A stretch of 64,000 nt of DNA from Escherichia coli (GCF_001677475.2 NZ_CP015229.1); one strand, 5' to 3'; shown: positions 2,705 to 47,128, counted from the stretch's first letter. Numbers and translations: made by a program. Notes: a model not told the origin generated them from the letters alone.

Positions 2705-3391
<687 letters not shown>

Positions 3392-4549
3392 TCAGGATGC
3401 GGGGATAACCAACGGTTTATTCCCGCTTAGCTCGGTCACCAGGTCATTGATGCCATCGCTCATATTTTTAAAGCGAGTCAACGGCGAGCGAGTGACGACC
3501 ACAAAAGCACCAATATTTTTTTGCGGGATCATCGCCATATAGGTAATGAATCCGCCGCCGCCACCAGTTTTCTGAATAATTCCCGGACGCCCATCTTTCG
3601 GCTCCATATATACCCAGCCTAAACCGAGCGCATCCGCTCTGCCAGGTACATCCATGCCGATCACTTTCGTAAACTGCGCGCGTTGATAAATCAGCGTCTG
3701 CATACGATCCGCCTGGTTACTGCGCTGATAAAAATCAGACGACAAATACTGCTGCATCCAGCGCATCATATCGCCAGGCGTGGAATAGACTCCGCCGCTG
3801 CCAATTGCCGCCAGCGTGTTATTGCACGGACTGGCACCACGCTCAGCAACCATTAAACGGCGGCACTGATCCGGCGAGGGGGTGTAGGTGGTGTCTTTCA
3901 TCCCCAATGGACGAGTAATCTGCTCTTCAAACAGCTGGGTATAAGGCTTGCCGGACGCATTCGCCAGTGCATCTGCCAGCAGGTCGAACGCAAGGTTAGA
4001 GTACGCCGCCTGACTGCCTGGCGCGGCTTTCAGCTTCGCCGTAGAAAGGTATTTCCAGCGTTGTTCGCGTGTCGGCCAGACAAACACCGGACGATTTGCT
4101 GCACCGCCAGGCTGTTCACGCGGCAGGGCGCTGGTATGGGTTGCCAGATTCACCAGCGTAATGGGCTTTCCATTGTAGGTCGGCACGCGTGTGCCTGGTG
4201 GAGCATATTTACTTAACGGGTCGTTTAACTTCACCGTGCCTTGATCGAGCAGCTTAACCAGCATTTCACTGGTCATCAGTTTAGTGAGGGACGCAATTCG
4301 GACTACAGAGTCTAATTGTGGGCGAACGTTATTACCGGGACGCGTTTCCCCATAACTGCGAAAGACGCGCTGATTACCGTCAATAACGACCAGTGCCATC
4401 CCCGTGGCACCGCTGCCGTAAAAAATATGATCGGCATAGCGATCGACAATATCAGAGGCGAACTCCGGTTCGGTGATCGGCTGTGCCGCATGGACGGAGG
4501 TCAATGACGCCGCACACAGCACGGCAGAAAAAAGCAGACTACGTTTCAA
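3392..4549 (-). CDS. ampH: Penicillin-binding protein AmpH (class C beta-lactamase fold, DD-peptidase)
   Basis: 385 aa; N-terminal signal peptide; SxxK active-site motif (SLTK); conserved position. Confidence 0.9.
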   Translation of the reverse strand: MKRSLLFSAVLCAASLTSVHAAQPITEPEFASDIVDRYADHIFYGSGATGMALVVIDGNQRVFRSYGETRPGNNVRPQLDSVVRIASLTKLMTSEMLVKLLDQGTVKLNDPLSKYAPPGTRVPTYNGKPITLVNLATHTSALPREQPGGAANRPVFVWPTREQRWKYLSTAKLKAAPGSQAAYSNLAFDLLADALANASGKPYTQLFEEQITRPLGMKDTTYTPSPDQCRRLMVAERGASPCNNTLAAIGSGGVYSTPGDMMRWMQQYLSSDFYQRSNQADRMQTLIYQRAQFTKVIGMDVPGRADALGLGWVYMEPKDGRPGIIQKTGGGGGFITYMAMIPQKNIGAFVVVTRSPLTRFKNMSDGINDLVTELSGNKPLVIPAS

Positions 4550-4900
4550 CGGTGGTGTCCATAGATTGAATGAAGGTAACTGAGCGTATTTATACTACTC
4601 ATTGATAGATTGCAAAGGGCGAATTAGTGCAATAATAGTGTTAAAAACGTAACGGCGCGTAAACACGATCTTTTTCCTGCTCACCAATGCCTGCATTTGT
4701 GATCCTGCGCGTGTTAATCCGCTTATGTAAACAATCTTTGGTTTGTGAAATCCGTCGAAACAATTCTTATGGTCAGGCTGGCGAACTAAGCGCCTTGCTA
4801 TGGGTCACAATGGGCGGTTTCATTTGGCTGACGCTTTGTAGCGGTCATGCGGTTAATACACAGCAGTTGTTAAAACGATAAGAAGTTAGCAGGAGTGCAT

Positions 4901-6121
4901 ATGTTTAAGTCTTTTTTCCCAAAGCCGGGAACGTTTTTTCTCTCGGCCTTTGTTTGGGCATTGATTGCCGTTATCTTCTGGCAAGCCGGTGGGGGGGACT
5001 GGGTGGCGCGTATCACCGGCGCTTCCGGGCAGATCCCGATTAGCGCCGCGCGTTTCTGGTCGTTGGATTTCCTGATTTTTTACGCTTACTACATTGTTTG
5101 CGTAGGACTTTTTGCATTGTTCTGGTTTATCTACAGCCCGCATCGTTGGCAATACTGGTCAATACTCGGTACTGCGCTGATTATCTTCGTCACTTGGTTT
5201 TTGGTGGAAGTCGGGGTTGCCGTCAACGCCTGGTATGCGCCGTTCTATGATCTGATTCAAACCGCGCTAAGTTCGCCGCATAAAGTCACCATCGAACAAT
5301 TTTACCGCGAAGTGGGCGTCTTTCTGGGGATTGCGCTGATCGCGGTGGTGATCAGTGTGCTGAACAACTTCTTTGTCAGTCACTACGTGTTCCGCTGGCG
5401 TACGGCGATGAACGAATATTACATGGCGAACTGGCAACAACTGCGTCATATCGAAGGTGCCGCACAGCGTGTGCAGGAAGACACTATGCGTTTTGCTTCA
5501 ACGCTGGAGAATATGGGCGTCAGTTTTATCAACGCCATCATGACGTTGATCGCCTTCCTGCCGGTGCTGGTCACGCTCTCCGCGCATGTGCCGGAGCTGC
5601 CGATTGTTGGGCACATTCCGTATGGTCTGGTGATTGCCGCTATCGTCTGGTCGATGATGGGGACCGGGTTACTGGCAGTGGTAGGGATCAAACTGCCGGG
5701 GCTGGAGTTTAAAAACCAGCGTGTAGAGGCTGCCTATCGTAAAGAGCTGGTTTATGGTGAAGACGATGCCACGCGCGCGACGCCGCCTACGGTACGTGAG
5801 TTGTTCAGCGCCGTACGGAAAAACTATTTCCGCCTCTATTTTCACTATATGTATTTCAACATCGCCCGCATTCTCTATTTGCAGGTCGATAACGTTTTCG
5901 GTTTGTTCTTGCTGTTTCCGTCAATTGTTGCCGGTACGATTACGCTCGGCCTGATGACGCAAATTACCAACGTTTTCGGTCAGGTTCGTGGTGCTTTCCA
6001 GTACCTGATTAACTCATGGACCACACTGGTTGAGTTGATGTCTATCTACAAACGTCTGCGCAGCTTTGAACATGAGCTGGATGGTGACAAAATTCAGGAA
6101 GTAACCCATACCTTGAGCTAA
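4901..6121 (+). CDS. sbmA: Peptide antibiotic transporter SbmA
   Basis: 406 aa from ATG at 4901 (AGGAG RBS upstream); polytopic membrane protein starting [10 protein letters not shown]; synteny. Confidence 0.9.
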
Positions 6122-6133
6122 AAAGGAGAAGTA

Positions 6134-7228
6134 ATGTCGCGCGTCAATCATCTATCTTCGCTGTCATTGTTGGCGGTTCTGGTTTTAGCGGGGTGTAGTA
6201 GTCAGGCTCCGCAACCGTTGAAAAAGGGCGAAAAAGCGATAGATGTGGCGAGCGTCGTGCGGCAGAAGATGCCTGCGAGCGTGAAAGACCGCGATGCCTG
6301 GGCGAAAGATCTCGCCACCACGTTTGAAAGTCAGGGGCTGGCACCGACGCTGGAAAACGTCTGCTCGGTGCTGGCGGTGGCGCAGCAGGAGTCAAATTAT
6401 CAGGCAGATCCGGCCGTTCCGGGCTTAAGCAAGATCGCCTGGCAAGAGATTGACCGTCGTGCTGAACGGATGCACATTCCTGCTTTTCTGGTGCATACCG
6501 CGCTAAAAATCAAATCGCCAAACGGCAAAAGTTATAGCGAACGGTTAGATTCGGTGCGTACTGAAAAGCAATTGAGCGCGATTTTTGACGATCTGATCAG
6601 CATGGTGCCAATGGGGCAGACGCTGTTTGGTTCGCTTAATCCGGTGCGCACCGGTGGGCCGATGCAGGTCAGCATTGCTTTTGCCGAACAGCATACCAAA
6701 GGGTATCCGTGGAAAATGGACGGTACAGTCCGTCAGGAAGTCTTCAGTCGTCGCGGCGGGTTGTGGTTTGGTACTTACCATTTACTGAATTATCCCGCCA
6801 GCTATAGCGCGCCGATATACCGTTTTGCTGATTTTAACGCTGGCTGGTACGCCAGCCGTAATGCCGCGTTTCAGAACGCGGTCAGTAAGGCCAGCGGCGT
6901 GAAGCTGGCACTGGACGGTGATTTAATTCGTTACGACAGTAAAGAGCCCGGGAAAACCGAACTGGCAACGCGCAAACTGGCGGGAAAACTGGGGATGAGC
7001 GACAGTGAAATTCGCCGCCAGTTAGAGAAAGGGGACAGCTTCTCTTTTGAGGAGACGGCGCTGTACAAGAAAGTTTATCAACTTGCCGAAGCGAAAACGG
7101 GTAAATCACTACCCCGCGAAATGTTGCCTGGCATTCAACTGGAAAGCCCGAAAATCACCCGCAACCTGACTACGGCCTGGTTTGCGAAGCGCGTAGACGA
7201 ACGGCGGGCGCGTTGTATGAAACAGTGA
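6134..7228 (+). CDS. yaiW: Lipoprotein YaiW
   Basis: 364 aa; lipobox LAGC after signal peptide; immediately downstream of sbmA. Confidence 0.85.
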   Translation: MSRVNHLSSLSLLAVLVLAGCSSQAPQPLKKGEKAIDVASVVRQKMPASVKDRDAWAKDLATTFESQGLAPTLENVCSVLAVAQQESNYQADPAVPGLSKIAWQEIDRRAERMHIPAFLVHTALKIKSPNGKSYSERLDSVRTEKQLSAIFDDLISMVPMGQTLFGSLNPVRTGGPMQVSIAFAEQHTKGYPWKMDGTVRQEVFSRRGGLWFGTYHLLNYPASYSAPIYRFADFNAGWYASRNAAFQNAVSKASGVKLALDGDLIRYDSKEPGKTELATRKLAGKLGMSDSEIRRQLEKGDSFSFEETALYKKVYQLAEAKTGKSLPREMLPGIQLESPKITRNLTTAWFAKRVDERRARCMKQ

Positions 7229-7286
7229 TCAAACAGGAATGTCAGGCCAGATAAGGCGTTTCAGGCCGCATCTGGCAACGTTAATC

Positions 7287-7595
7287 TTACTGGTGGCGAT
7301 GTCGCCAGCGCAGCCATAGCGCCACCACTGCAAAAATGAGGCAGCCTACTAAAAACGGGATCAGCCCGAAAATGGTGCCGACACCTAAACCAATTTCCAC
7401 CCGTGGGCGACCTGTTTCCTGGACCTGCATTAAACGCTCATAGACGCCGGGCGCATGCACTAACAGGTTCAGCAATTGCGCCCCAGCCCAAAAGCAAAAC
7501 AGCACAAACAACGCATAGGCAATGTTGCCTGGCGTTGAAGAGGCATTGCGATATTTTCCGCTAAACAGCGATTTTGACAGGGTGAAATCAGCCAT
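7287..7595 (-). CDS. yaiY: Small inner membrane protein YaiY
   Basis: 102 aa, two hydrophobic helices; synteny. Confidence 0.8.
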
Positions 7596-7854
7596 AAAAA
7601 CCTCCGGAAGTCATCTGCTTCTCTTCTGGTGTGATACCAGCGGCTTATGGCAAGTCTGACAGGTCATTTAGATTGTCAATATCAGAATCATGGTAAATTG
7701 ATGTTGGGAATATTCCCGAAGCGTGAATCTTCGTTGTGAGTCACAAAATGGCAACCTTAAGTTAAATTTATTAACAATTACGAAAATGTTGTCTACACCA
7801 CAGACGGTTGTTACAGAATATGCAAGGATGTTGTTTTTCGTTAACGGAGCTGCC

Positions 7855-19334: not shown

Positions 19335-19426
19335 TGCCTGATGCGACGCTTGCCGCGTCTTATCAGGCCTACAAAATGTGCCAGAACCGCGTAGGGCGGA
19401 TAAGGCGTTCACGCCGCATCCGGCAA
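19335..19426. repeat. REP cluster (BIME-like, two inverted REP units) between mak and araJ
   Basis: GCCTGATGCGACGCTTGCCGCGTCTTATCAGGCCTAC and GGATAAGGCGTTCACGCCGCATCCGGCA. Confidence 0.7.
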
Positions 19427-20762: not shown

Positions 20763-23700
20763 TTATTTCACTGCAAACGTACTTTCCAGTTTGCTGTAGC
20801 CCAGGCCGTTGATCTTTTTCACTTTGATCTGCACCGGAATACGCTCTTTCATCGCTTCTACGTGGCTAATCACACCGATGGTTTTGCCACTGGCGTTCAG
20901 GGCATCCAGCGCATCAAGGGCGGTATCCAGCGTTTCGCTATCCAGCGTGCCAAAACCTTCATCAAGGAACAGCGAGTCAATACGTGTTTTATGGCTGACC
21001 AGATCCGAAAGCGCCAGCGCCAGCGCCAGACTGACGAGGAAACTTTCGCCTCCGGAAAGGGTACGGGTATCGCGTACCGCATCTGCCTGCCAGGTATCAA
21101 CAACCTCGACTTCCAGCGCCTCGCTGGCTTTGCGCTGTAACAGATAGCGCCCGTGCAGCCGGGTAAGTTGCTGATTAGCGAGATGGACTAAATTATCCAG
21201 CGTCAGCCCCTGGGCAAACTTGCGGAATTTATCGCCCTCTTTGGAACCTATTAGCGAATTCAGATATCCCCAGTCCTCAACCTGCTGCGTCATTTGAGCA
21301 ATTTGCTGCATTAAGGTTTGTTGTTGCTGACGGTTATCTGCATCCTGCTTCAGCTGCTGGCGAATCTCGCCTTGACTCGTGGTGTTTTCACGCAACTTTT
21401 GGTGAGTTTGCGCTAACTCTTGCTGAATCTGCTCCACCGTCACAGTGAGAGCCAACCCGCCAGGTCGGTGTTGCTGATGCTGTGCCAGCGTTTCTGCTGT
21501 CTGAGTGACCAGCGTTTGCGCCTGACGGCGCTGGTTTTCCAGATTCTGCTTGAGCTGTTCCAGCTGCGTTAGTGTTTGTTCATCCATTAGCGCCGCAAGG
21601 AACGCCTGCTGATCGTCAAAGACGCTGGCCTGTAGCGCGGTGTCAAACTGCGCCTGGGCTTTTTGCAGACTTTGCGCCGCCAGAACGTCCTGTTGCTGTA
21701 ACGTCTGCTGCTGGCTGTGTAATGCGAGACATTGTTCATGTACCTGCCGCCAGTTTTCCAGTACCACAGTTTCTTCGCAGTGCGGGAGTTCATCACTTTG
21801 CGGCAACGTTTCCAGAATCGGCGTCAGCTGCTGAATACGGTTTTGCAGCGCGGTTAATTCGTTCTGGCGATGTTGCCAGCTCTGCGCTTCTTGCTGACGT
21901 GTCGCCAACCAGCTCTCTTCTTCATCTTCCTGTGGCAATGTCAGTGCATAACCCGCCAATGCCGTTAAGAGCTGCTGCTGGCGTTGTTCAATTTGCTGTT
22001 GATACTGGATAATTTGCTGATTATGTGCGGCAATCTGCCCTTGTAATTCATGTCGTTGGCTGAGTAACCGCAGCTGGCGTTCGTGCTCATCTTGTGCATC
22101 TAGCCACGGTTGAATATCGTCCTGTGGCTGCAAGGTGATATTGAGGCTGGCCGTGACGGCTTGCCATTGTTGAGTAAGTGCTTGCTCATCTTGTCGGAGG
22201 CTTTGCGCTTCGTTTTCATCACGCTGAAGCTGCTTTGTTAAGGCGTCCAGTTGCCCACGTAGCGTCGCACCTTCTTCACCGAGCTTTTTAACTTCGTTTT
22301 CCAGCGCCAGTAATCGAGACTGATTAACACCAGGCTCCAGCGCCTGATACGCCTCGACCGCCGGGTGGCTGGTGGAACCACAAAGTGGGCAAGGCTGACC
22401 CGCCTGTAACTGCGCGCGCTGGGCTTCCAGCGTTTTAATGCGCGCTTCCTGCTCGCAAATGGTTTTCACATCGGCAAGTTGCTGCGTCTTTTCTTTATAA
22501 CGCTGGCGCATTTCGTTAAGTGCGGCATTACGTTGCGTCTGTTCCAGAGTGACATTCTGGATAGTGACCATTAACTGCGCCAGACGTTTTTGTTGGGGAA
22601 CAATCTGCCCATGCAGCGCGACCAGGTGCTGACGCAGTGGGCGTTGCTCAGCATGTTGCGCCAGGGCGGTAGCAACTTCATCGGCGGTTAACGTCAACGT
22701 AATAGCCGCAAGCGCATTAAGTTTTTGCTCAGCATGGGTTAACTGTTGCTGCCATTGCCGCAGATGCTCGCGATCGCTGGTTTGTTGGGAGAACTGCGCA
22801 CGCCAACCCGCCAGTTCGTTGTTCCACTGACGGAAGCGGTCGTGTTCCTGTAACCAGGTATTCAGGCTTTGTTGCTGCTGCTGTAATTCTGCTGACTGCT
22901 TCGCCGCGTGGTGGCGAATGCTCGCGCGAAGCGCCATTGTGCTCTGTAAGCGAGTATTTACTTCTTCAATCTGCTGGCGAGTATGCGCCAGCGCCGCGCT
23001 GTGTTCTGCGATGCGTTCCCAGTGCGGACGAAGATTTCGTGCCGGTTGTGCCAGACTGAGCGCCGCCAGTTGAGGTTGCGCTTTTTCTTCTTCGGCTAAC
23101 GCCTGTTGCAAGGCCTGCTGACGGCGGCTGGCTTCTTGCTGCAATTCGTCCAGACGCGTTAACCAGTTTAGCGATTGTTGTTCTTGCTGCTGCGCGGTAA
23201 GTAACTGTTTTTCTTCGTCAGTAAGTACCTGCAAACTCGCTGTCAGCGATTGCACTTGTTCCGGCGTGAGCAACGCGACGCCGCTGGCCTGCGCTTGCAG
23301 CTTCTCCAGCTCAGTGCGGGCCGATTTGTGCTGCTCAAAAACCATCGCCGAGATTTGCCCGTAGATTTCAGTGCCGGTTAACTCCTCAAGCAATTCCGCG
23401 CGTTCTTTGGGTTTGGCATTCAGGAAGGCAGCAAATTGCCCCTGCGAAAGCAGCATCGAACGGGTGAAGCGCCCGTAATCCAGCCCGGTTAACGTCGCTG
23501 TCAGTTCCAGCTTATCTTTCACTTTGTCGGCGAGAATTTTGCCGTCGGCGCAACGCGCCAGCTCTACGCGTGGCACCTGCAAATTACCGTCGGGTTGGTT
23601 ACGCGCCCGATTCTGGCTCCAGAACGCGCGATACGCTTCACCTTTCACTTCAAACTCCACCTCCGCCAGACATTCGGCGGTATCGCGGGTCATGAGATCA

Positions 23701-40542: not shown

Positions 40543-40890
40543 ATGGCTATCATCCCAAAAAACTATGCGCGGTTAGAAAGCGGCTATCGCGAAAAAGCAT
40601 TAAAAATCTATCCGTGGGTCTGCGGTCGCTGTTCCCGCGAGTTTGTTTATTCCAACCTGCGTGAACTTACCGTTCACCACATTGATCACGACCATACTAA
40701 TAACCCGGAAGATGGCAGTAACTGGGAATTGCTTTGTCTCTATTGCCACGATCATGAGCATTCGAAATATACCGAAGCGGATCAGTATGGTACGACCGTT
40801 ATCGCAGGGGAAGATGCGCAGAAAGATGTCGGTGAAGCGAAGTACAACCCATTCGCTGATTTAAAAGCGATGATGAATAAGAAGAAGTGA
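40543..40890 (+). CDS. yajD: HNH nuclease-family protein YajD
   Basis: 115 aa; Cys/His-rich HNH-like motif (CGRCSREF ... HHIDHDHTNN ... CLYCHDHEH). Confidence 0.85.
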   Translation: MAIIPKNYARLESGYREKALKIYPWVCGRCSREFVYSNLRELTVHHIDHDHTNNPEDGSNWELLCLYCHDHEHSKYTEADQYGTTVIAGEDAQKDVGEAKYNPFADLKAMMNKKK

Positions 40891-40904
40891 TTAAAACGCA
40901 AAAT

Positions 40905-41004
40905 TGCCTGATGCGCTACGCTTATCAGGCCTACGTAATCTCAGCAATGTATTGAATTTACGTGCTTTTGTAGGCCGGATAAGGCGTTTACGCCGCATCC
41001 GACA
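40905..41004. repeat. REP cluster between yajD and tsx
   Basis: GCCTGATGCGCTACGCTTATCAGGCCTAC and GTAGGCCGGATAAGGCGTTTACGCCGCATCCGACA. Confidence 0.65.
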
Positions 41005-41032
41005 TGAACAAAGCGCACGTTGCTAACAATCT

Positions 41033-41061
41033 GAAATGCCGGATACAAGATCCGGCATTTC
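41033..41061 (-). terminator. Palindromic hairpin immediately downstream of tsx (candidate terminator)
   Basis: AAATGCCGGAT-(7 nt)-ATCCGGCATTT, an 11-bp stem a few nt after the tsx stop. Confidence 0.45.
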
Positions 41062-41066
41062 ATTCA

Positions 41067-41951
41067 TCAGAAGTTGTAACCTACCACCAGGTAACCACCC
41101 CAGCCGGTAGAGCGAACGTTGAAGTTGCCGTTGCCGAAGTTCAGTTCTGCATCGTCGTTCCACTGACCACCGTCGTGCCAGTAACGAGCTACGACAGAGT
41201 AGTGCCAGTGATCGTAGTTCAGAGCCAGAATATGGCTGGAAGCGATAGAGTTATTGGTACGCGTCTTAATACCGTTGATTGCGTTACCGCTGTCATCACC
41301 CAGATCGGAACCCCAGTCAAAGTTGGTGAAACCGATGTAGCTTAACTGACCGCCCCACAGATCGGTAATCGGCACAAAGTATTTAACTTTGAAACGGTAA
41401 CCGTCCCACTCGTTTTCGTTCGCTGCACCGTAGTTCTGCCACTGGTATTTCGCATACACGTTCAAGGACAGGCTCATCGGCAGGCCAGTGTCGATGTCCG
41501 TACCCAGACCCATGTACCAGGTGCTCTGGCGACCATCTTTATTACGACCCATGTCGTAAATGTAGTTGTTCGCGAAGTACCACTCTTTGAACGGACCGAA
41601 GCTAAGGTCAGTATTGGTCAGCTTGTCGATGGAGAAACGCGGTTCGATTTCCATAAACAGCGGAGAACCGTGGTTCCAGATACCTTTTGCATCGGAGTTA
41701 CCGCCGAAGAATACCGGCGCATCCGCATAACCATAAAAGTCGAACCAGTCTTTTTTAGCGAATGCTTCGTACTCCAGGTAGGTATCGTTGCGGATCTGCG
41801 GTCCGAAACGGGTGTGATAACTTCCTACGACGTTAACGCTCTGGTGCCACCAGTCGGAGAGATACTGCGGTTTGTCGTTTTCAGCTGCGTTGACAGTAAA
41901 AGACGAAGAGAGCGCCAGTACCGCGCCGGCTGCCAGTAATGTTTTTTTCAT
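41067..41951 (-). CDS. tsx: Nucleoside-specific outer membrane channel Tsx
   Basis: 294 aa from [22 protein letters not shown] (signal peptide); beta-barrel ending in F. Confidence 0.92.
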
Positions 41952-42249
41952 ATGTATGCCACTGTTTGAAAATCCCTTGCGGGAGTGAAAAAGGCGCAAA
42001 TTGCGTTTCTAAATATTTCGTATACAGAGGAGCCTATTATAAAAATCATTGCTCACAAAAATATGTTTCGTTTCACAGTTCTATCATTTACGTAATCGAT
42101 TGCGTTCACGTTTACACACATTCGGGCGGGGATTGTACTGACTTTCACCCTTGTTGCAAACTTTTACTATCAATCCAGGTGATGTAAGCGGAGTAACAAA
42201 ATGACGGGAAAAGATGTTGCGGGACGCACAAAATCGCCCCGCAATACGT

Positions 42250-42789
42250 TTACTGCATAACAGGTTGAATGTCGTGGATACGTACAAAGCCTAACTGATC
42301 CACAGAAATGCCCTTTAACTGTAACGGAATATCAACATCGCTGGGGGCGAGGACGCTGGCAGGGGCGTTAATCAATTGATTCTGCACATTGATTTCCTGA
42401 AAGTTGTCTATTGTTCCCTGAATTTGCCCATATTCAACAGTTCCGCTGAATGCGGGCAAGGGATCATTCGACTCGCCCTCAATACGTAGCGTCAGGGTGG
42501 TGCCATCTGTATCAGGCGTAATATTCACCAGCGACATACGTAAAGTACCGATCTGGCTTTCCAGTCTTGCTGGTGTTTTCGCTCCAGGCAGAAGGTAAAC
42601 CCCACTGCTGGATTTTGCATTCAGCCTGTTTTGCTGAGTGATTTTGACCGTTTCTTTATTGAGTTGCGTCATCTCCTGGTTCAGTGTGCTGACGCTGTGT
42701 TTCATCTGTCGCACTTCGCTTTGCTGCACACAGGCGCTAAGGCTGAACAAGCTTCCCAGCAGGAGCAGTCGAAAAACGTTAGTATTCAT
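42250..42789 (-). CDS. yajI: Lipoprotein YajI
   Basis: 179 aa from MNTNVF...; lipobox LSAC; synteny. Confidence 0.8.
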   Translation of the reverse strand: MNTNVFRLLLLGSLFSLSACVQQSEVRQMKHSVSTLNQEMTQLNKETVKITQQNRLNAKSSSGVYLLPGAKTPARLESQIGTLRMSLVNITPDTDGTTLTLRIEGESNDPLPAFSGTVEYGQIQGTIDNFQEINVQNQLINAPASVLAPSDVDIPLQLKGISVDQLGFVRIHDIQPVMQ

Positions 42790-42903
42790 AGGTCGTCCCT
42801 TTCTCGTCGCAATTAGCCTAATGGTAGAGGGTAAAAGCAGCGAAAGCATCGATCCTTTATCTCAAAAGCGTTGCGCCTTTGTTGTATCGTCAGTTCAGGG
42901 TAA

Positions 42904-43389
<486 letters not shown>

Positions 43390-43392
43390 GCC

Positions 43393-44496
43393 GTGCAGGA
43401 CGAGTATTACATGGCGCGGGCGCTAAAGCTGGCGCAACGAGGACGTTTTACCACGCATCCCAACCCGAATGTCGGGTGCGTCATTGTCAAAGATGGCGAA
43501 ATTGTCGGTGAAGGTTACCATCACCGTGCTGGTGAACCACACGCCGAAGTACATGCGTTGCGTATGGCTGGAGAAAAAGCCAAAGGTGCGACTGCGTATG
43601 TGACACTCGAACCTTGCAGCCATCACGGCCGTACGCCGCCTTGCTGTGATGCATTAATTGCCGCAGGTGTGGCGCGCGTGGTTGCCTCGATGCAAGATCC
43701 TAACCCGCAGGTCGCTGGACGTGGACTTTACCGTCTGCAACAGGCTGGCATTGACGTCAGCCACGGGCTGATGATGAGTGAAGCCGAGCAATTGAATAAA
43801 GGCTTTCTCAAGCGGATGCGCACTGGCTTTCCTTATATCCAGTTAAAACTTGGCGCATCGCTTGATGGTCGCACGGCGATGGCGAGCGGTGAGAGCCAGT
43901 GGATCACTTCGCCTCAGGCGCGGCGCGATGTACAACGTCTGCGTGCGCAAAGTCATGCCATTTTAACCAGTAGCGCCACGGTGCTGGCGGACGATCCGGC
44001 CTTAACGGTGCGTTGGTCTGAACTGGATGAACAAACTCAGGCGCTCTATCCGCAACAAAATCTCCGCCAGCCGGTACGCATCGTCATTGACAGTCAGAAT
44101 CGCGTGACGCCGGAACACCGCATCGTGCAGCAGCCAGGCGAGACCTGGTTTGCCCGAACGCAGGATGACACCCGCGAGTGGCCGGAAACAGTGCGCACTT
44201 TGCTGATCCCGGAACATAATGGGCATCTGGATTTGGTTGTGCTGATGATGCAACTGGGCAAGCAACAAATTAATAGTGTGTGGGTAGAGGCGGGGCCAAC
44301 GCTCGCTGGCGCACTGCTACAGGCTGGTTTAGTCGATGAGCTGATTGTCTATATCGCACCTAAACTTTTAGGTAGCGACGCCCGTGGATTATGTACGCTG
44401 CCAGGGCTTGAGAAATTAGCTGACGCCCCCCAATTTAAATTCAAAGAGATACGTCATGTAGGCCCGGATGTTTGCCTGCATTTAGTGGGTGCATGA
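43393..44496 (+). CDS. ribD: Bifunctional riboflavin biosynthesis protein RibD (deaminase/reductase)
   Basis: 367 aa from GTG; deaminase Zn motifs HAEVHAL and [12 protein letters not shown]. Confidence 0.93.
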
Positions 44497-46550: not shown

Positions 46551-47046
46551 AGATGTCGCGAAAAGTCGCCTGAAGATGAGTAATCCGTGGCATCTGCTTG
46601 CTGTCGGATTCGGAAGTGGATTAAGCCCAATCATTCCTGGCACGATGGGATCGCTGGCGGCGATTCCGTTCTGGTATCTGATGACCTTTTTGCCCTGGCA
46701 GCTCTATTCGCTGGTGGTGATGCTGGGGATCTGTATCGGTGTGTATCTTTGTCATCAAACGGCGAAAGACATGGGCGTGCACGATCACGGCAGCATTGTC
46801 TGGGACGAATTTATTGGTATGTGGATCACGCTCATGGCGCTGCCGACCAATGACTGGCCGTGGGTCGCCGCCGGGTTTGTGATTTTCCGTATCCTGGATA
46901 TGTGGAAACCGTGGCCGATCCGCTGGTTTGATCGCAATGTACATGGCGGCATGGGGATCATGATCGATGATATTGTCGCTGGGGTGATTTCTGCTGGAAT
47001 ACTCTATTTTATCGGCCATCACTGGCCGATGGGTATTCTGTCGTAG
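46528..47046 (+). CDS. pgpA: Phosphatidylglycerophosphatase A
   Basis: 172 aa; start overlaps the thiL 3' end by 23 nt; membrane protein. Confidence 0.9.
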
Positions 47047-47123
47047 GCCGAATAAGGCGTTCACGCCGCATCCGGCGGTTGCGCACTGATGCCTGATACG
47101 ACGTGAACGCCTTATCAGGCCTG
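47047..47123. repeat. REP cluster between pgpA and yajO
   Basis: GTAGGCCGAATAAGGCGTTCACGCCGCATCCGGCG and TGATGCCTGATACGACGTGAACGCCTTATCAGGCC. Confidence 0.65.
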
Positions 47124-47128
47124 GATAT

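Follow-up and report, generated by a model that had tools for sequence, protein, structure and literature searches.

YajD, a 115-residue protein of Escherichia coli, is read here as an active housekeeping nuclease controlled through its C-terminal tail. The reading is tentative, and we give it a probability of about 0.45. The gene is among those of E. coli that are universally conserved without an assigned function. It appears to encode a potentially dangerous free HNH nuclease without an immunity partner, and it is constrained like its essential neighbours, yet a single mutant (in Salmonella) has no phenotype. Our analysis leaves the identity of the gene unchanged and removes a misleading lead towards secretion. 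The new points are modest: the adjacency to secretion genes is incidental, the genomic context is uninformative (about 160 loci), and the tail carries a conserved peptide. Two handles are available for experiments, the putative catalytic residue H46 and the tail peptide (residues 99–115).

Identity of the open reading frame

The gene was analysed in a window of 64,000 nucleotides of E. coli (GCF_001677475.2, NZ_CP015229.1), by which we mean the whole stretch of DNA; coordinates are counted from its first letter.

40543–40890, + strand: yajD coding sequence, 115 codons plus stop (ORF call, profile matches, RefSeq)

The ORF listing of the window places a 115-residue ORF with an ATG start at exactly these coordinates, with the translation MAIIPKNYARLESGYREKALKIYPWVCGRCSREFVYSNLRELTVHHIDHDHTNNPEDGSNWELLCLYCHDHEHSKYTEADQYGTTVIAGEDAQKDVGEAKYNPFADLKAMMNKKK. 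A preliminary description made from the sequence alone had named the product YajD and pointed to three Cys/His-rich HNH-like motifs, all of which are found in the translation: CGRCSREF (residues 27–34), HHIDHDHTNN (residues 45–54) and CLYCHDHEH (residues 65–73). The name is borne out by two profile families and by RefSeq. Pfam PF01844 (HNH) is matched across profile positions 1–47 of 47 with an E value of 1.1e-12 (48.4 bits against a gathering cut-off of 21.4). The NCBIfam equivalog NF008448, 'YajD family HNH nuclease', is matched with 210.3 bits (curated cut-off, 87) and aligns end to end, residues 2–113 on profile positions 2–113 of 113. Full-length matches of this kind mean that the ORF is not a chance one. 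At the homologous place in E. coli, RefSeq lists 'yajD: HNH nuclease YajD', followed by tsx.

The product is the same protein as that of the YajD family (NF008448 / PRK11295; E. coli yajD), being 99% identical to the representative of the E. coli cluster, and the window copy differs from most E. coli alleles by about 2–4% in DNA. It also carries the family-specific P-F-A-x-L peptide after a variable linker at its C-terminus, a criterion that we defined from the alignment. The ORF is yajD, an already annotated gene of a curated family. The YajD name is also given by PGAP to members outside Gammaproteobacteria (Myxococcota, Nitrospira and Hydrogenedentota).

The window itself looks like a divergent Escherichia lineage or cryptic clade, atypical of E. 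coli, as judged from sequence divergence. For the yajD coding sequence, 5412 of 5424 matching records are 95–99% identical and only 7 reach at least 99%, the best being SCU-485 (99.1%). Synonymous divergence between the window (36075–44496) and the E. coli reference contig is 0.15–0.29 for tgt, yajC, secD, secF and yajD.

The HNH core and its active site

The ordered part of the protein consists of two elements:

40558–40608, + strand: N-terminal helix, residues 6–22, with nearly invariant R16 and L20 (AlphaFold2 model, conservation)
40621–40767, + strand: HNH / beta-beta-alpha-metal core, residues 27–75 (Pfam, conserved columns, AlphaFold2, fold matches)

The predicted zinc ligands are C27, C30, C65 and C68, which would form a Cys4 zinc knuckle, and the predicted catalytic residues are H45/H46, N60 and H69/H73. 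In an alignment of 34 sequences the invariant columns are C27, C30, R32, L42, T43, H46, D57 and G58. Those conserved at 90% or more include R16, L20, P24, F34, H45, D48, H51, N54, P55, S59 and N60, as well as W61, E62, C65, C68, H69, E72, H73, P103, F104 and L107. D48 to S59 make up a conserved loop within the core. A separate alignment of 21 distant members gives the same picture, and conservation of the active site extends from Enterobacterales out to Myxococcota, Nitrospira and Hydrogenedentota.

The AlphaFold2 model of the monomer (pLDDT 74 and pTM 0.53 overall; pLDDT about 90 in the core) contains strands at residues 42–46 and 61–65 and a helix at residues 66–82. Strand 1 ends in H45/H46, N60 precedes strand 2, and the helix carries H69/H73. 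The strand-1 His, the structural Asn and the metal-binding His of the helix, by which an HNH domain is recognised, are all retained in YajD. Its fold matches are HNH domains, and all of the solved structural neighbours are DNA nucleases. Run against the PDB, the profile picked up spurious C2H2 zinc fingers, which have the beta-beta-alpha shape in common. As judged from the alignments and the model, YajD is a zinc-stabilised HNH protein with a complete and constrained catalytic set.

These residues bear on the possibility that YajD is a domesticated, non-cutting His-Me finger, whose role would be that of a zinc- or His-rich adaptor for metal or of a factor that binds nucleic acid, the tail being the part that does the work. 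In domesticated HNH folds the catalytic residues are usually lost. We looked for loss of the catalytic His and Asn residues in the 34-sequence alignment and found them retained, invariant or nearly so. The strictest conservation lies in the set H45, H46, N60, H69 and H73, beyond the zinc cysteines, and we consider a non-cutting YajD unlikely.

A conserved peptide at the end of a flexible linker

Two further elements follow the core:

40768–40836, + strand: variable, mostly acidic, disordered linker, residues 76–98 (pLDDT, length and charge counts)
40837–40887, + strand: basic C-terminal peptide, residues 99–115, AKYNPFADLKAMMNKKK (conservation, motif search, charge)

In the AlphaFold2 model residues 83–106 are disordered, with pLDDT below 50 at residues 87–98 of the linker, and residues 107–112 form a short helix. 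Across the family, 27–43 residues (median 30) separate the end of the core from the tail motif, and the linker has a mean net charge of −1.6. The tails are net positive in 97%.

Residues 102–115 of YajD, NPFADLKAMMNKKK, carry a P-F-A-x-L motif, and the peptide with F104 and L107 reads EAKYNPFADLKAMMNKKK. The family consensus is A-T-[HY]-[NQ]-P-F-A-[DNG]-L-[K]-x-[ML]-[LM]-[KN]-K-K. P103, F104 and L107 are nearly invariant in the 34-sequence alignment. Of 207 sequences whose core is intact and whose C-terminus is long enough, 146 carry P-[FL]-[AEG]-x-[LMI] some 13 residues before the end. Most members that lack the motif are frameshifted or fragmentary metagenome calls, or have conservative variants (PFDDL, PFSDL). 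By the alignments, the tail peptide is nearly as conserved as the active site, and the feature is absent from existing annotation.

The ending ...SMVRPLSQGKMRRKMSVKRSTTHSL, common to many metagenome 'homologues', is what the 3' half of yajD encodes in the +1 frame; a 73-residue ORF at 40643–40864 of the window may be compared with this ending. Such endings are frameshifted assemblies and not protein variants, so the count of tail-less YajD proteins is inflated.

Peptides conserved in this way and held on a flexible tether usually mark a docking or regulatory motif. The hydrophobic moment of YajD tails (0.30–0.52) overlaps that of the membrane-targeting sequences of MinD and FtsA. That P-F-A-x-L is strictly invariant speaks for contact with a specific protein over a membrane-targeting amphipathic helix. 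The tail does not match what we take to be the bacterial clamp-binding consensus. An AlphaFold2 model of a tandem fusion of YajD through a Gly-Ser linker, aimed at a dimer or at docking of the tail in trans, showed neither with confidence (pLDDT 48 and pTM 0.33, lower than for the monomer) and counts neither for nor against them.

Gene neighbourhood

Genomic context was sampled at 80 genome loci, one per species, and at 80 metagenome loci around distant YajD members; neighbouring ORFs were clustered and then tallied against Pfam. Neighbours differ from genus to genus. The 60 upstream neighbours in the genome loci fall into 76 Pfam families, none common to more than 3 loci, and the 63 downstream neighbours into 83 families, none common to more than 2. 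In the metagenome loci 108 families were found among 132 neighbours, the commonest being Dus, a tRNA dihydrouridine synthase (5 loci). By ORF clusters and Pfam tallies no recurrent partner gene was found in the roughly 160 loci. The neighbourhood was thus rejected as a source of function: there is no enrichment, and the recQ, ruvAB and arfB contexts are isolated. Gene-neighbourhood methods cannot solve yajD.

The isolated contexts fall on both the DNA and the RNA side. In Metallibacterium recQ is divergently adjacent to yajD and ligA is nearby. In Hydrogenedentota (locus 2858–5414) the order is ruvA-ruvB-X-yajD on one strand, with gaps of 31–55 bp. A 761-bp contig encodes a predicted protein in which an AlkZ-like fragment and a YajD region are fused. 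These DNA-repair neighbours count for the main reading, but they amount to about 3 among roughly 200 loci and are anecdotal. Gene X of Hydrogenedentota encodes a 118-residue protein with a C-terminal CxxC...CxxC, and no RuvC-like gene lies between ruvAB and yajD.

On the RNA side, YajD could act on RNA or the translation machinery instead of DNA, for instance as a nuclease that cuts mRNA, tRNA or rRNA in stalled ribosomes. In one lineage the yajD stop is overlapped by 4 bp by the start of a gene for a 148-residue RF-1-domain protein, probably of ArfB type, and a gene with an NYN RNase domain comes next. Dus lies upstream on the same strand in the 5 metagenome loci, and by our own comparison the basic tail and flexible linker might be likened to tails that enter the channels of the ribosome. 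These contexts are no less anecdotal than those of DNA repair, however; the solved structural neighbours speak for DNA, nothing in the YajD sequence is RNA-specific, and we hold an RNA substrate to be improbable. The recQ, ruvAB, AlkZ and RF-1 contexts are anecdotes, a handful among roughly 200 loci.

In the RF-1/NYN locus (4491–7787) yajD is preceded by a gene with a PLD domain, cardiolipin-synthase-like; the resulting PLD-yajD-RF-1-NYN locus is a possible translation-rescue or RNase context in that one lineage. Domain fusions were considered as functional hints and rejected, since most of the longer homologues are products of frameshifts or of faulty gene calls. One long homologue has weak BNR-repeat matches, below the Pfam gathering cut-offs.

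Conservation and selection

The preliminary description had assigned yajD to the core genome, and the coding sequence alone indeed has exactly one match place in 5424 of 5426 complete E. coli genomes. By the Nei-Gojobori method yajD has a dN/dS of 0.040 in the comparison with E. coli and of 0.023 in that with E. albertii; the corresponding values are 0.006–0.08 for secD/secF and 0.06–0.13 for tsx. Purifying selection on yajD is as strong as on secD and secF.

YajD homologues are 83–99% identical across Enterobacterales and still 63–80% identical in Vibrionales and Alteromonadales. Identity to the Vibrio and Shewanella proteins is 65–80% although synonymous sites are saturated; identity at third codon positions between genera is only 45–60%. 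GC3 tracks the host genome from 0.30 to 0.85 (Proteus 0.35, Ferrimonas 0.85). Saturated synonymous sites and host-adapted GC3 thus mark yajD as an old resident of each lineage and not a recent arrival, and on third-position identity and GC3 we rejected recent horizontal transfer as the cause of its variable position. An exhaustive search among 1.84 billion representatives found YajD homologues at E 1e-3 or better in only 640 clusters (50% identity), a count that fits a tight, slowly evolving family.

Universal single copy, low dN/dS (0.02–0.04) and host-adapted codon usage, with no sign of recent transfer, make a selfish or defence role unlikely, and we rate it very low, whether YajD is pictured as the product of a homing-type gene or mobile cassette or as an orphan restriction or abortive-infection nuclease. 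What might suggest such a role is that the position of yajD differs between genera, even within Enterobacteriaceae (Citrobacter, Enterobacter), that Pantoea carries yajD on pPag1-type replicons (61 plasmid records), and that the HNH core is 47–51% identical to homing endonucleases of Vequintavirinae and weakly similar to ZorE in PADLOC (E 4e-7). The phage and PADLOC matches are confined to the generic HNH core, however: in PADLOC only the HNH part of ZorE is matched (profile positions 213–269 of 282), in PHROGs only generic HNH families are matched, and no full-length YajD homologue was found in 50,697 phage records. No methylase, immunity, ATPase or Zorya genes are associated with yajD in the neighbour tallies, and neither these nor the window placed genes of Zorya or any other defence system near it.

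The single yajD copy has been relocated even among Enterobacteriaceae: in Citrobacter and Enterobacter (including E. asburiae) it lies apart from secF and tsx, while Salmonella, Kluyvera and Pseudocitrobacter have it in the Escherichia position. The Pantoea vagans C9-1 plasmid pPag1 carries yajD at 20971–21318, with a product 94% identical to the window protein; the Pantoea plasmid records listed with yajD are about 131–181 kb long, plus two of 0.77–0.93 Mb.

The transcription unit and its flanks

secF ends at 40414, 128 bp upstream of yajD on the same strand, and tsx (41067–41951) lies on the opposite strand, convergent with yajD. Five features lie in the flanks:

40434–40473, + strand: intrinsic terminator of the secDF operon (12–13 bp stem, then T-run; terminator scan)
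40474–40542, + strand: presumed yajD promoter and 5' UTR (AGGTAAC RBS region at about −12)
40907–40935, + strand: REP element GCCTGATGCGCTACGCTTATCAGGCCTAC, hairpin-forming (sequence, fold, multi-copy in E. coli genomes)
40970–41003, − strand: second REP, in inverted orientation (REP consensus search)
41032–41062, no strand assigned: perfect 13-bp hairpin between yajD and tsx, which converge (inverted repeat)

The terminator-like hairpin of secF, with its inverted repeat at 40435–40446/40451–40462, begins twenty bases past the secF stop codon, and a terminator between secF and yajD means that yajD is insulated from secDF. A consensus scan called no consensus sigma-70 site on the + strand upstream of yajD. 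Genera in which yajD has unrelated neighbours have in common the RBS region ACAGGTAAC and, at about −45, a TATAnT box, which indicates that the promoter region travels with the gene. By visual comparison, the upstream sequence CTTGGGAA-N-CCCTACAT may be read as a sigma-32-like promoter. Nearly all loci leave 39 bp or more between yajD and the gene before it, and in the genome loci examined intergenic DNA separates yajD from both neighbours.

In several genera with unrelated neighbours a partly palindromic motif, (C)CCAT-N2-ATGGGATATATT, is found at about −60 to −40 upstream of yajD; the Dickeya version is CCCATATATGGG. The motif could represent a promoter plus operator. The upstream sequence in Escherichia differs (AACCCTACATTTT) and is shared with Enterobacter sp. 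Ag1.

Downstream, the REP cluster announced in the preliminary description is real: two REPs were found by sequence and consensus search, multi-copy in E. coli genomes, and together they form a BIME-like pair. The REP consensus has 4 matches in the window, the minus-strand element among them, against 0 expected by chance, and a 656-bp stretch with both REPs has a median of 35 match places per E. coli genome. Rfam naRNA4, a REP-derived RNA, gives a partial match in the REP stretch (E 2.8e-4, below the gathering score). Elsewhere in the window three further REPs fit the same consensus, at 19391–19424, 47043–47076 and 47091–47124. The region 40888–41080 folds better than shuffled sequence (z-score −4.8), and the hairpin at 41032–41062 is probably a bidirectional terminator.

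A Term-seq study (PMC12207403) confirmed in vitro an intrinsic terminator downstream of yajD, which may or may not coincide with this hairpin, and a NusG-suppressed pause inside yajD serves as an example in a NET-seq study (PMC10268239). These reports show that yajD is transcribed and behaves as a monocistronic unit. yajD is a self-contained monocistronic unit with its own terminator and a promoter region assigned by inference.

Adjacency to secDF and tsx

Among the 80 genome loci, secF upstream and/or tsx downstream of yajD is seen only in Escherichia, Kluyvera and Pseudocitrobacter, the last with a 1.4-kb insertion (a gene) between secF and yajD. In Salmonella the order is also secF-yajD-tsx, but for the insertion of an Ldr toxin gene. 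In about 70 other genera, including Citrobacter, Enterobacter, Pluralibacter, Hafnia, Proteus, Yersinia, Vibrio, Shewanella and Colwellia, neither secF nor tsx lies within 6 kb of yajD.

The embedding of yajD in a secDF/tsx neighbourhood, as the preliminary description had it, is true of the sequence but has no functional meaning, given the terminator and the loss of adjacency in about 70 genera. It is a lineage-specific gene order, incidental, and implies no link to secretion. A tie of YajD to SecDF/YajC export or to Tsx nucleoside and phage uptake, to which its place past secF on the same strand, its convergence with tsx and the same order in Salmonella, Kluyvera and Pseudocitrobacter might point, is effectively refuted by the synteny data; against it stand the intrinsic terminator, the Pseudocitrobacter insertion and the separation in the other genera.

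The Ldr-family type I toxin gene lies between yajD and tsx at 5786–5893 of the Salmonella enterica CP082688.1 locus. This record is labelled a plasmid but carries queA-tgt-yajC-secDF-yajD-tsx-nrdR-ribDE-nusB, and probably represents a piece of chromosome under the wrong label. Several 'E. coli plasmids' of 1.2–4.9 Mb in PLSDB look likewise mislabelled.

Published phenotypes

A yajD deletion of Salmonella Typhimurium grew like wild type at 15, 37 and 44 °C, behaved like wild type in 2–4% NaCl, at pH 5–11 and in 15 mM H2O2, and had a competitive index in mice of 1.2 (PMC3878590). Resistance to H2O2 was lower in two double mutants, ychN/yajD and cbpA/yajD (PMC3878590). We count the loss of H2O2 resistance in the double mutants for the main reading and the null result of the single deletion against it. 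The preliminary description held the function to be uncharacterised; no paper assigning a function to YajD, and no biochemistry of any YajD, was found in the searchable literature, whose coverage leaves out most subscription journals.

Proposed mode of action

We propose that YajD is a stand-alone, vertically inherited housekeeping member of the His-Me-finger (HNH) superfamily. It would be a catalytically competent, metal-dependent nuclease, with H46 as general base and H45, H69 and H73 as metal ligands, as in the colicin / Gme-HNH arrangement. Because there is no immunity partner, we read its activity as intrinsically weak or substrate-restricted, for instance the nicking of damaged or branched DNA. 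With a flexible linker of about 30 residues as its tether, the conserved basic tail peptide would dock on a partner and thereby recruit or regulate YajD. Within the reading of YajD as an active nuclease, a DNA-repair-type substrate is the most likely.

By analogy with ZRANB3 on PCNA, the tail might dock YajD on a DNA-transaction hub such as the sliding clamp, SSB, RuvB or RecQ, for which the odds seem low to us. If it is true that the tail recruits YajD to a replication or repair hub, YajD would be a new component of bacterial genome maintenance, and the tethering would represent an unrecognised DNA-processing step common to Gammaproteobacteria and several other phyla.

Comparison with known nucleases

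Several known systems were considered as homes for YajD and rejected. A colicin or bacteriocin HNH DNase toxin was set aside on the lack of an adjacent immunity gene and of a delivery domain, the gene being monocistronic and the product 115 residues long. The anti-phage HNH effectors (among them Zorya ZorE, Cap5 and retron/Septu PtuB) gave no full-length match, and no system genes were found. A free-standing or intron/intein homing endonuclease was rejected on presence in 5424 of 5426 genomes, purifying selection and the lack of an extra domain.

The similarity to the phage HNH homing endonucleases of the Vequintavirinae DNA polymerase gene covers the HNH core (residues 27–86). In those proteins the domain is C-terminal, behind another N-terminal region, and is not followed by a YajD tail; they interrupt a host gene, whereas yajD is a fixed single-copy cellular gene. 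In Escherichia phage Av-05 (77462–82318) the DNA polymerase gene is in at least 3 pieces, split by three HNH endonuclease genes, and one of their HNH cores is 51% identical to YajD residues 27–85.

T4 endonuclease VII (gp49) is matched by the single sequence with an E value of 0.008 over the N-terminal helix, both CxxC pairs and the H-x-D-H-D-H loop, and it is also among the fold matches. Specific kinship was rejected, as this match is gone in a profile search of the PDB. Family membership was rejected as well: there is no PF02945 match, and YajD ends in a disordered tail with no C-terminal dimerisation domain.

Two proteins serve as precedents for the proposed mode of action, human ZRANB3 and Gmet_0936. 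ZRANB3 combines an HNH domain with a terminal PCNA-binding peptide that stimulates cleavage (PMC5481773). It is a eukaryotic multidomain ATPase of about 1079 residues with a C-terminal APIM peptide, and its identity to YajD is 19%. The YajD tail is neither an APIM nor a PIP motif, and the parallel is one of analogy only.

A counterpart in layout is Gmet_0936 of Geobacter (Gme HNH, PDB 4H9D). It has no significant sequence similarity to YajD and is absent from the matches of a PDB sequence search; it has D-H...N where YajD has H-H...H, and its taxonomic range differs. A YajD-type tail is not apparent from the published description or from the fold matches. Gmet_0936 is a stand-alone protein of about 110 residues with the same CxxC...[D/H]H...N...CxxC[N/H] layout, and it shows weak, Mn-dependent nicking with a preference for AP-site DNA (PMC3765158).
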